DNA of 6,371 nt from a virus (lineage: Duplodnaviria > Heunggongvirae > Uroviricota > Caudoviricetes), in the IMG/VR virus record IMGVR_UViG_2778261504_000024, one strand, 5' to 3'. The notes under the pieces are model-generated. The model worked only from the letters and a program-made list of their open reading frames with translations, ran no database searches and was not told the origin of the DNA. The first letter of the stretch is position 1. Every line of letters begins with the position of its first letter. The translations under genes were made by a program, and so were the position numbers. Positions 1-671 of this stretch are shown one piece after another.

Positions 1-423
1 TTAAAACGGTATGTTATCCCCGTACGGGTCATCATTTCCCGCCTGTTGTTTTGCCCTGTTCAGTGCGTCAGTAGCCTGGCCCTGCTGGCCTTTTTTGTCG
101 CCCGGTCGCGCTGTTCGGGCACTGATTACGCTGTCTGCGATAACCTGCCAGCCCTGCCGCGTTTCGCCGTTCTGGCCTGTCCACTGGCTTACCTGCATGT
201 TACCCGCCACGCTCACCAGTTCGCCTTTCCGGTGCTTTGCCAGTGCGTCGGCCTGTCTGCCAAACGCCAGGACGGATAACCACATCGTCGCCGTTCCGTC
301 ATCTGCCTGGCTGCACGGCAGGGGAACCGCCATACTCGCCGTTGCCATTTGTGTCCCCTTGCTGGTGGTCTTTAACTGCGGGTCAGTCGCCAGCCGCCCG
401 TAAGCTGCTATCTGTGCTGTCAT
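1..423 (-). CDS. Single-stranded DNA-binding protein-like (OB-fold SSB family, divergent), 140 aa
   Basis: Translation aligns by eye to the E. coli SSB pattern (GRLATDPQL..., WLSVLAFGRQADALAKHRKGELVSVAGNMQVSQWTGQNGETRQGWQVIADSV) and ends in the acidic tail DDPYGDNIPF (compare SSB DDDIPF). Gly/Gln-rich linker before the tail. RBS GGAGAG 8 nt upstream of ATG (423-421). ATGA start/stop overlap with upstream orf83 at 420-423. Confidence 0.7.
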   Translation of the reverse strand: MTAQIAAYGRLATDPQLKTTSKGTQMATASMAVPLPCSQADDGTATMWLSVLAFGRQADALAKHRKGELVSVAGNMQVSQWTGQNGETRQGWQVIADSVISARTARPGDKKGQQGQATDALNRAKQQAGNDDPYGDNIPF

Positions 424-671
424 GTTGTCTGCTCTCCGGTTTTAACGTTGATGGTTGTCACCTGTTCCGCTTCGGCAATCTCCCGTTCTGTCAGCGTGGC
501 AAAGTTTGCCGCCGCCGTGGTCATGAATGCGCTTATCAGTTCGGGATGTGCTTTCGCGTATCCTTCTCCGGCGTGGCGGTCTATCGTTCTGATTGCCACC
601 TTTAAGGCGTGCTCTGTCATGTCTAATGCGCGATATTTTGGCGCTGTCTTATCTCTGGTTTTTCTGGTCAT
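420..671 (-). CDS. Hypothetical protein, 83 aa, translationally coupled to the ssb-like gene
   Basis: ATG at 671-669 preceded by GAGGA, though spacing is short. Stop TGA overlaps the SSB ATG (ATGA). No recognisable motif. Confidence 0.45.
   Translation of the reverse strand: MTRKTRDKTAPKYRALDMTEHALKVAIRTIDRHAGEGYAKAHPELISAFMTTAAANFATLTEREIAEAEQVTTINVKTGEQTT

Follow-up and report, generated by a model that had tools for sequence, protein, structure and literature searches.

A divergent SSB gene and its phrog_1231 neighbour after the iteron-type origin of an EcCICFT073-type PICI

Among the described satellites, the locus studied here is most usefully set beside EcCICFT073, the prototype Gram-negative phage-inducible chromosomal island (PICI), which is carried by E. 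coli CFT073 (Fillol-Salom et al. 2018, PMC6092414) and which we took as NC_004431 1377930-1388654. In this prototype the genes follow the order int, AlpA-type HTH, divergent YlcI/YnfO, Icd-like, small ORFs, DUF4222, Rep and iteron ori, and an 85-aa ORF and a 136-aa SSB come after a gap of 288 bp 3' of Rep. In PICI origins, an AT-rich region lies between two sets of iterons (PMC6092414, Fig. 2 legend), and the EcCICFT073 rep-ori segment alone drives plasmid replication (Fillol-Salom et al. 2018, PMC6092414). Moreover, 'Primase, SSB and DUF5906' has been described as a replication category of PICIs that colocalises with mapped origins (Barth et al. 2023, PMC10111431). In the literature that we searched, we found no experiment on the SSB of the present locus or on the small protein encoded next to it.

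The window, by which we mean the whole stretch of DNA analysed (6,371 nt), is the left part of an EcCICFT073-type Gram-negative PICI, and its first base is the end of the ssb stop codon. The element is therefore of a well-described type and is not new. It has the gene order of the prototype, and the PICI gene set was recognised through Pfam (integrase, AlpA, DUF4222 and AAA_25 Rep) and NCBIfam (Icd-like, YlcI/YnfO and integrase domain). According to the ORF list and the profile matches, all the main genes of the window are carried by the minus strand, with the tyrosine integrase at one end and AlpA and the other main genes reading in one direction (Table 1).

Table 1. Features of the window, from the integrase end to the ssb end.
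Feature	Position	Strand	Evidence or remark
Integrase	5130-6371	-	PRK09692-type, 560 bits
76-aa ORF	4801-5031	-	
AlpA	4424-4630	-	Pfam
YlcI/YnfO gene, divergent	3641-3946	+	NCBIfam
Icd-like ORF	3238-3444	-	NF033153, 70 bits
157-aa ORF	2775-3248	-	
DUF4222	2285-2584	-	Pfam
rep, 471-aa RepA-family helicase	873-2288	-	PF13481 (AAA_25) 3e-44; phrog_2850; PGAP 'helicase RepA family protein'
Iteron-type origin, non-coding, 200 bp	672-872	n/a	Two repeat sets round an AT-rich centre
83-aa ORF, phrog_1231 family	420-671	-	E = 1.2e-50
SD-like GGAGAG, 8 nt 5' of ssb ATG, within 83-aa gene	432-437	-	Read from sequence; putative function
ATGA overlap, 83-aa stop / ssb start	420-423	-	Read from sequence
ssb, 140 aa	1-423	-	OB domain residues 1-103; linker and tip residues 104-140
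C-terminal tip codons D-N-I-P-F, residues 136-140	4-18	-	

Several other features of the window deserve mention. Within the 157-aa ORF, a run of ten C at 3017-3026 (G10 on the coding strand), which codes for Gly-Gly-Gly, is a slippage-prone tract; the counterpart of this region in SCU-125 is annotated as separate, shorter genes. A 393-aa ORF at 3238-4419 on the minus strand is almost certainly spurious, since it overlaps the opposite-strand YlcI/YnfO gene and has no annotation in relatives, and the Icd-like domain matches only its C-terminal part. Between YlcI/YnfO and alpA, about 470 bp (3950-4423) contain several GC-rich hairpin-like sequences, for example at 4243-4265, and no convincing gene was seen there. 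The Rfam search for non-coding RNA in the window returned nothing with E as high as 0.1, and C4/isrK-type immunity RNAs, which have been reported in some PICIs, were thus undetected in it. Defence-system components were searched with PADLOC, which gave no match for any protein tested.

The closest full-length relative is found in E. coli ETEC1734 (L002 in our set of compared loci), as an island of about 10 kb adjoining tRNA-Pro in which the SSB gene is followed by a small ORF, the genes for a major capsid protein and a head-decoration protein, and three small ORFs. In this strain the annotation gives the RepA helicase gene (12873-14288) as a pseudogene interrupted by a stop codon, and the genes for the small protein and the SSB are intact. 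The same Rep-ori-small protein-SSB module occurs in E. coli SCU-125 (L001, NZ_CP051700, 9350-22110). The island there has another integrase and interrupts the gene for the large terminase of a lambdoid prophage, whose terL fragments are at 9350-10471 and 20627-21619. It also contains a DUF1441 gene of its own and a gene in which ClpP protease and capsid are fused, and it looks like the 'helper-embedded PICI' configuration (PMC10111431). We also considered that the window might derive from a phage or from a plasmid. A phage origin was rejected, as a megablast of the window against 50,697 phage records found nothing, and so was a plasmid origin, as only partial matches of 83-94% identity were obtained in six plasmid-labelled records, two of them megabase-sized. 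In plasmid-collection records and other matches, the same SSB is paired with Reps named 'AAA family ATPase' or 'DUF5906'. The two genes are chromosomal in E. coli and frequent there: ssb is present in 1510 of the 5426 complete genomes and the 83-aa gene in 1607 (about 28-30%), with up to six copies per genome, and RefSeq names the products 'single-stranded DNA-binding protein' and 'hypothetical protein', respectively.

We then considered the origin and its presumed initiator. The motif CCCACTT occurs seven times in the window, six times in direct and once in inverted orientation, and all copies lie in 684-871; 0.82 copies would be expected over the entire window, and none of 200 shuffles reached seven. 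The (C)CCCACTT copies form two sets that flank a core with 33% GC, with longer repeats of 24 nt at both ends; the non-coding segment lies between the Rep stop (873) and the start of the 83-aa gene (671). Its sequence is nearly identical in SCU-125 and ETEC1734, and its position and layout are those of the experimentally validated EcCICFT073 ori (PMC6092414). Rep resembles the helicase parts of primase-helicases and is presumed to be the initiator that acts on the iterons. Both components differ from those of the prototype: EcCICFT073 has a Rep of 584 aa named 'DNA primase family protein', whereas the window encodes a RepA/AAA_25 helicase of 471 aa, and the EcCICFT073 iterons (CTGTCTACC / GGTAGA) are unrelated to CCCACTT. 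Rep and ori have been exchanged as a cassette (672-2288 in the window, 27242-29284 in the EcCICFT073 locus, L004), and the small protein-SSB pair downstream is orthologous. As the pair is constant across this exchange of Rep and iterons, it is not specific to one initiator, which suits a general aid to replication better than a factor that recognises origins.

The original prediction described the 140-aa protein, which ends in DDPYGDNIPF, as a divergent SSB with a conserved C-terminal IPF tail, and both parts of this description were borne out. The protein scored above the curated cut-offs of Pfam PF00436 (61.7 bits, cut-off 26) and TIGR00621 (63.6 bits, cut-off 53.95), and phmmer matched 27 SSB sequences of the PDB, the best being those of Thermus and Thermotoga. 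Over the OB domain it is 27% identical to E. coli SSB, and the label 'divergent' is thus fair; no close relative was found among the 50,697 phage records, where identity was below 32%. An OB-fold, which was to be sought by alignment and structure prediction, was indeed recovered. In the AF2 model, residues 1-103 form a beta-barrel core with a pLDDT of 85-95, and residues 104-140 are a low-confidence tail with a pLDDT below 50. The best 50 Foldseek matches in the PDB were all OB domains of bacterial SSBs, with a probability of 1.0 and a target TM of 0.67-0.83. In 20 homologues, D136, I138, P139 and F140 of the D-x-IPF tip are invariant, and the linker that precedes them varies and contains indels. 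Residues W48, F54 and W81, which align with W54, F60 and W88 of E. coli SSB, are invariant in the same 20 homologues, and altogether the OB core, aromatic ssDNA-contact positions included, is conserved as much as the tip. W40 of E. coli SSB has no equivalent, and the position of the tetramer-interface residue H55 is occupied by L49. The dN/dS of ssb was 0.10-0.20 against three orthologues, that is, the gene is under purifying selection. Judged by its sequence and predicted structure, the product genuinely belongs to the SSB family and is under selection, and it is predicted to bind ssDNA.

The small gene lies directly after the iteron origin, and its TGA (422-420) overlaps the ATG of ssb (423-421) by 4 nt (A423 T422 G421 A420 on the minus strand); this placement had been given correctly from the start, coordinates included. 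The same 4-nt overlap is present in SCU-125 and ETEC1734 and is kept in most of the 62 Escherichia-type IMG/VR loci. A few of these 62 loci are truncated where the contig stops or contain a broken SSB ORF, and in two Escherichia-type loci (L041 and L042) ssb is located about 310 nt downstream of the small gene. In Shigella flexneri SFBU1023 (L005, about 6230-6700), an extra ORF of about 100 aa stands between the small gene and an SSB gene that is truncated or recombined. As for translation signals, the last iteron (AAAGTGGGGAG, coding strand, 672-690) contains the only plausible Shine-Dalgarno sequence of the 83-aa gene, a GGAG 9 nt before the ATG, and a second GAGG is only 1 nt from this ATG. 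Neither a sigma-70-like promoter nor a terminator-like site on the minus strand was found in 1-1000, which is consistent with read-through from rep without being proof of it. The 83-aa gene is also under purifying selection: of the six pairs compared, five gave a dN/dS of 0.06-0.48 and one had no synonymous differences.

The 83-aa protein itself belongs to phrog_1231 of PHROGs, which it matches with residues 1-82 of an 83-position profile. This family has no assigned function, no Pfam model and no structure. The protein had no match in Pfam, NCBIfam or PADLOC, nor in the PDB by sequence or by profile. The AF2 model, with a pLDDT of 62, predicts a helical hairpin made of helices 18-34 and 43-73; as it was built on shallow alignments, it is poorer than it could be, and with this low-confidence model Foldseek found no match in the PDB. 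Its close homologues come from Escherichia and Shigella only, with an occasional one from Citrobacter. Nevertheless, the family is much larger, since a profile search of 1.84 billion representatives, with E up to 0.001, retrieved 659 proteins, and most of the best ones listed are 70-110 aa long. The distant relatives that were aligned share the core motif ID..FG.GYAK.HPELIAAFM.TAA with the 83-aa protein, and all of the 26 that were sampled match phrog_1231. By tblastn, neither the 83-aa protein nor one of its distant relatives (P0254) had a match in the 50,697 phage records. Two P4 proteins were tried as homologues and rejected: Cnr, for which hhalign gave a probability of 0.2% and which was not supported by a DUF5375 Pfam match, and P4p05, which hhalign ruled out.

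We also looked at the genomic contexts of phrog_1231. By plain count, at least eight distinct cassette types have a member as the first gene behind a primase-helicase, and iteron-like repeats lie in the gap in five of them, including L031, L043, L086 and L091. The upstream primase-helicase carries Zn_Ribbon_Prim and DUF3987 in L009, phrog_239 in L025, DUF5906 in L031 and L043, and Zn_Ribbon_Prim, Toprim and DUF927 in L086 and L091/L095. Further on, L086 and L091 contain an HK97-type capsid gene, and L091 a prohead protease gene as well; both look like capsid-forming satellites. Other members occupy different places, directly after AlpA and one gene before a DUF927 primase (L006 and L016) or after a CI-like repressor (L017), and in about 15 of about 25 distinct contexts a primase-helicase is absent among the annotated neighbours or distant only. 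The 83-aa protein therefore tracks Rep-ori cassettes of satellites. No SSB was found within 5 kb of the distant phrog_1231 members at any of 18 IMG/VR loci, whereas most of the 62 Escherichia-type loci have one; the pairing with SSB is thus lineage-specific, being seen in IMG/VR loci of the Escherichia/Shigella PICI lineage only. The coupling that was originally proposed holds for the overlap of the two genes in this lineage; distant members stand beside primase-helicases without an SSB. Our best guess, a tentative and rather doubtful one, is that the 83-aa protein acts on the Rep/ori side, in loading, copy control or regulation, and is not a dedicated SSB partner. We speculate further that phrog_1231 might be a widespread and unrecognised 'post-origin' satellite factor, which works with diverse primase-helicase initiators (AAA_25 RepA, DUF5906, DUF927 and DUF3987), for example as a loader, an adaptor or a copy-number controller, and which has been joined to a dedicated SSB in Escherichia PICIs; such a general role seems to us possible but somewhat unlikely.

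What would the SSB bring to the island? The best explanation, and in our opinion a probable one, is that it serves the replication module of the PICI as an accessory. Upon induction by the helper phage, the leftward operon (alpA to rep) would probably be read through ori into the 83-aa gene and ssb, and the two genes would be translated via their overlapping ATGA codons. Rep would open the iteron origin with its helicase activity, and the island SSB would coat the exposed single strands, while its acidic D-x-IPF tip could engage the host partners of E. coli SSB, such as Pol III chi, primase, PriA and exonucleases. In this way high-copy replication of the island might be supported while the helper and the island compete for host SSB. 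Since EcCICFT073 rep and ori suffice for a plasmid to replicate (PMC6092414), the SSB is not required for initiation and would be accessory rather than essential. For the same reason, of the self-contained replication module that had been predicted, the location in the replication region is retained and the self-contained character is not.

Other explanations have to be weighed against this accessory role in replication. The two genes may be neighbours by position only, the 83-aa protein being a regulator or an anti-host factor of the early operon and the ATGA overlap a mere result of compact packing. The lack of an SSB at all 18 distant loci agrees with this, as do the members of phrog_1231 that directly follow AlpA or a CI-like repressor and the extra DNA that parts the two genes in L041, L042 and L005, with an extra ORF in the last. 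However, the overlap is exactly 4 nt in most of the 62 Escherichia-type loci, and the pair is kept together through the exchange of the Rep/ori cassette; a purely positional association is quite possible, although it is not what we would expect. Alternatively, the SSB could work mainly through its IPF tip and titrate host SSB partners such as ExoI/SbcB, RecQ, RecJ or PriA instead of serving as a replication SSB. Satellite concatemers might thereby be shielded, SOS or defence systems influenced, or the helper put at a disadvantage. Indeed, the tip is the most strictly conserved piece of the C-terminal region, and the protein belongs to a lineage distinct from the host SSB (27% identity) and from what the 50,697 phage records contain (<32%). 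In addition, a 2026 preprint reports that triggering of the DRT10 defence system requires an SSB-like phage protein whose tip is FDDDIPF, and proposes competition with SbcB (10.64898/2026.04.29.721553). Titration by the tip nevertheless seems quite unlikely to us, because the OB core with its aromatic ssDNA-contact positions is conserved equally and PADLOC gave no match. Moreover, when post-ori genes of EcCICFT073 were cloned singly, only c1503 (rppA) inhibited lambda, and the text consulted does not list the genes that were cloned (Fillol-Salom et al. 2019, PMC6739421).

The original prediction also envisaged a DNA-entry module, in which the SSB would protect incoming DNA during establishment in a new cell, as proposed for the ssb of the leading region of conjugative plasmids. 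It is true that ssb genes are common on mobile elements that enter cells as single strands. The DNA of a PICI, however, is delivered as a duplex injected by phage particles, and the ssb gene considered here stands at the distal end of the rep operon, with no sigma-70-like promoter of its own found in 1-1000. Its place beside rep and ori matches instead the replication category of PICI genes (PMC10111431). We therefore abandoned this part of the prediction, as a role in entry appears very improbable.

In terms of discovery, the value of the locus is low. This kind of satellite is well studied, and the SSB is already known: it is very common, it is annotated as such in well over 1000 E. coli genomes, and it is listed among the PICI replication genes, so that the RefSeq name together with the replication category of the 2023 paper leaves little novelty. 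What a satellite gains from an SSB of its own is a modest question, given that rep and ori suffice. The only lead worth keeping is the 83-aa protein with its family, which is large and uncharacterised and accompanies the origins of many unrelated satellites; this makes the protein a cheap, well-defined experimental target.

Among the described systems, the closest is EcCICFT073. In both elements the small protein gene and ssb follow ori with the same 4-nt overlap, and the products are orthologous, with 75% identity for the small protein and 69% for the SSB. In EcCICFT073, ssb is followed by a PerC-family gene, a small ORF, and the capsid (c1499) and decoration (c1500) genes, and capsid and decoration genes are also present further downstream in relatives of the window element. 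The integrase and the attachment site differ, since EcCICFT073 adjoins roxA whereas the closest relative of the window is at tRNA-Pro. With E. coli SSB, the window SSB shares the OB fold and a disordered C-terminal region that ends in an acidic D-x-IPF tip, which resembles the tip of the host protein, DDDIPF. It is nevertheless shorter (140 aa versus 178 aa), and its linker of about 30 residues is rich in Lys and Gln, whereas that of E. coli SSB is rich in Gly, Gln and Pro; by sequence, the closest solved relatives are the SSBs of Thermus and Thermotoga and the Gram-positive SsbA/SsbB. As for the 83-aa protein, P4 Cnr (ORF106, DUF5375) offers a functional analogy only. The gene of this small regulator of copy number adjoins that of the P4 alpha primase-helicase. 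Both are thus small proteins encoded beside the primase-helicase gene of a satellite, but the Cnr gene lies upstream of alpha, whereas the 83-aa gene lies downstream of ori.
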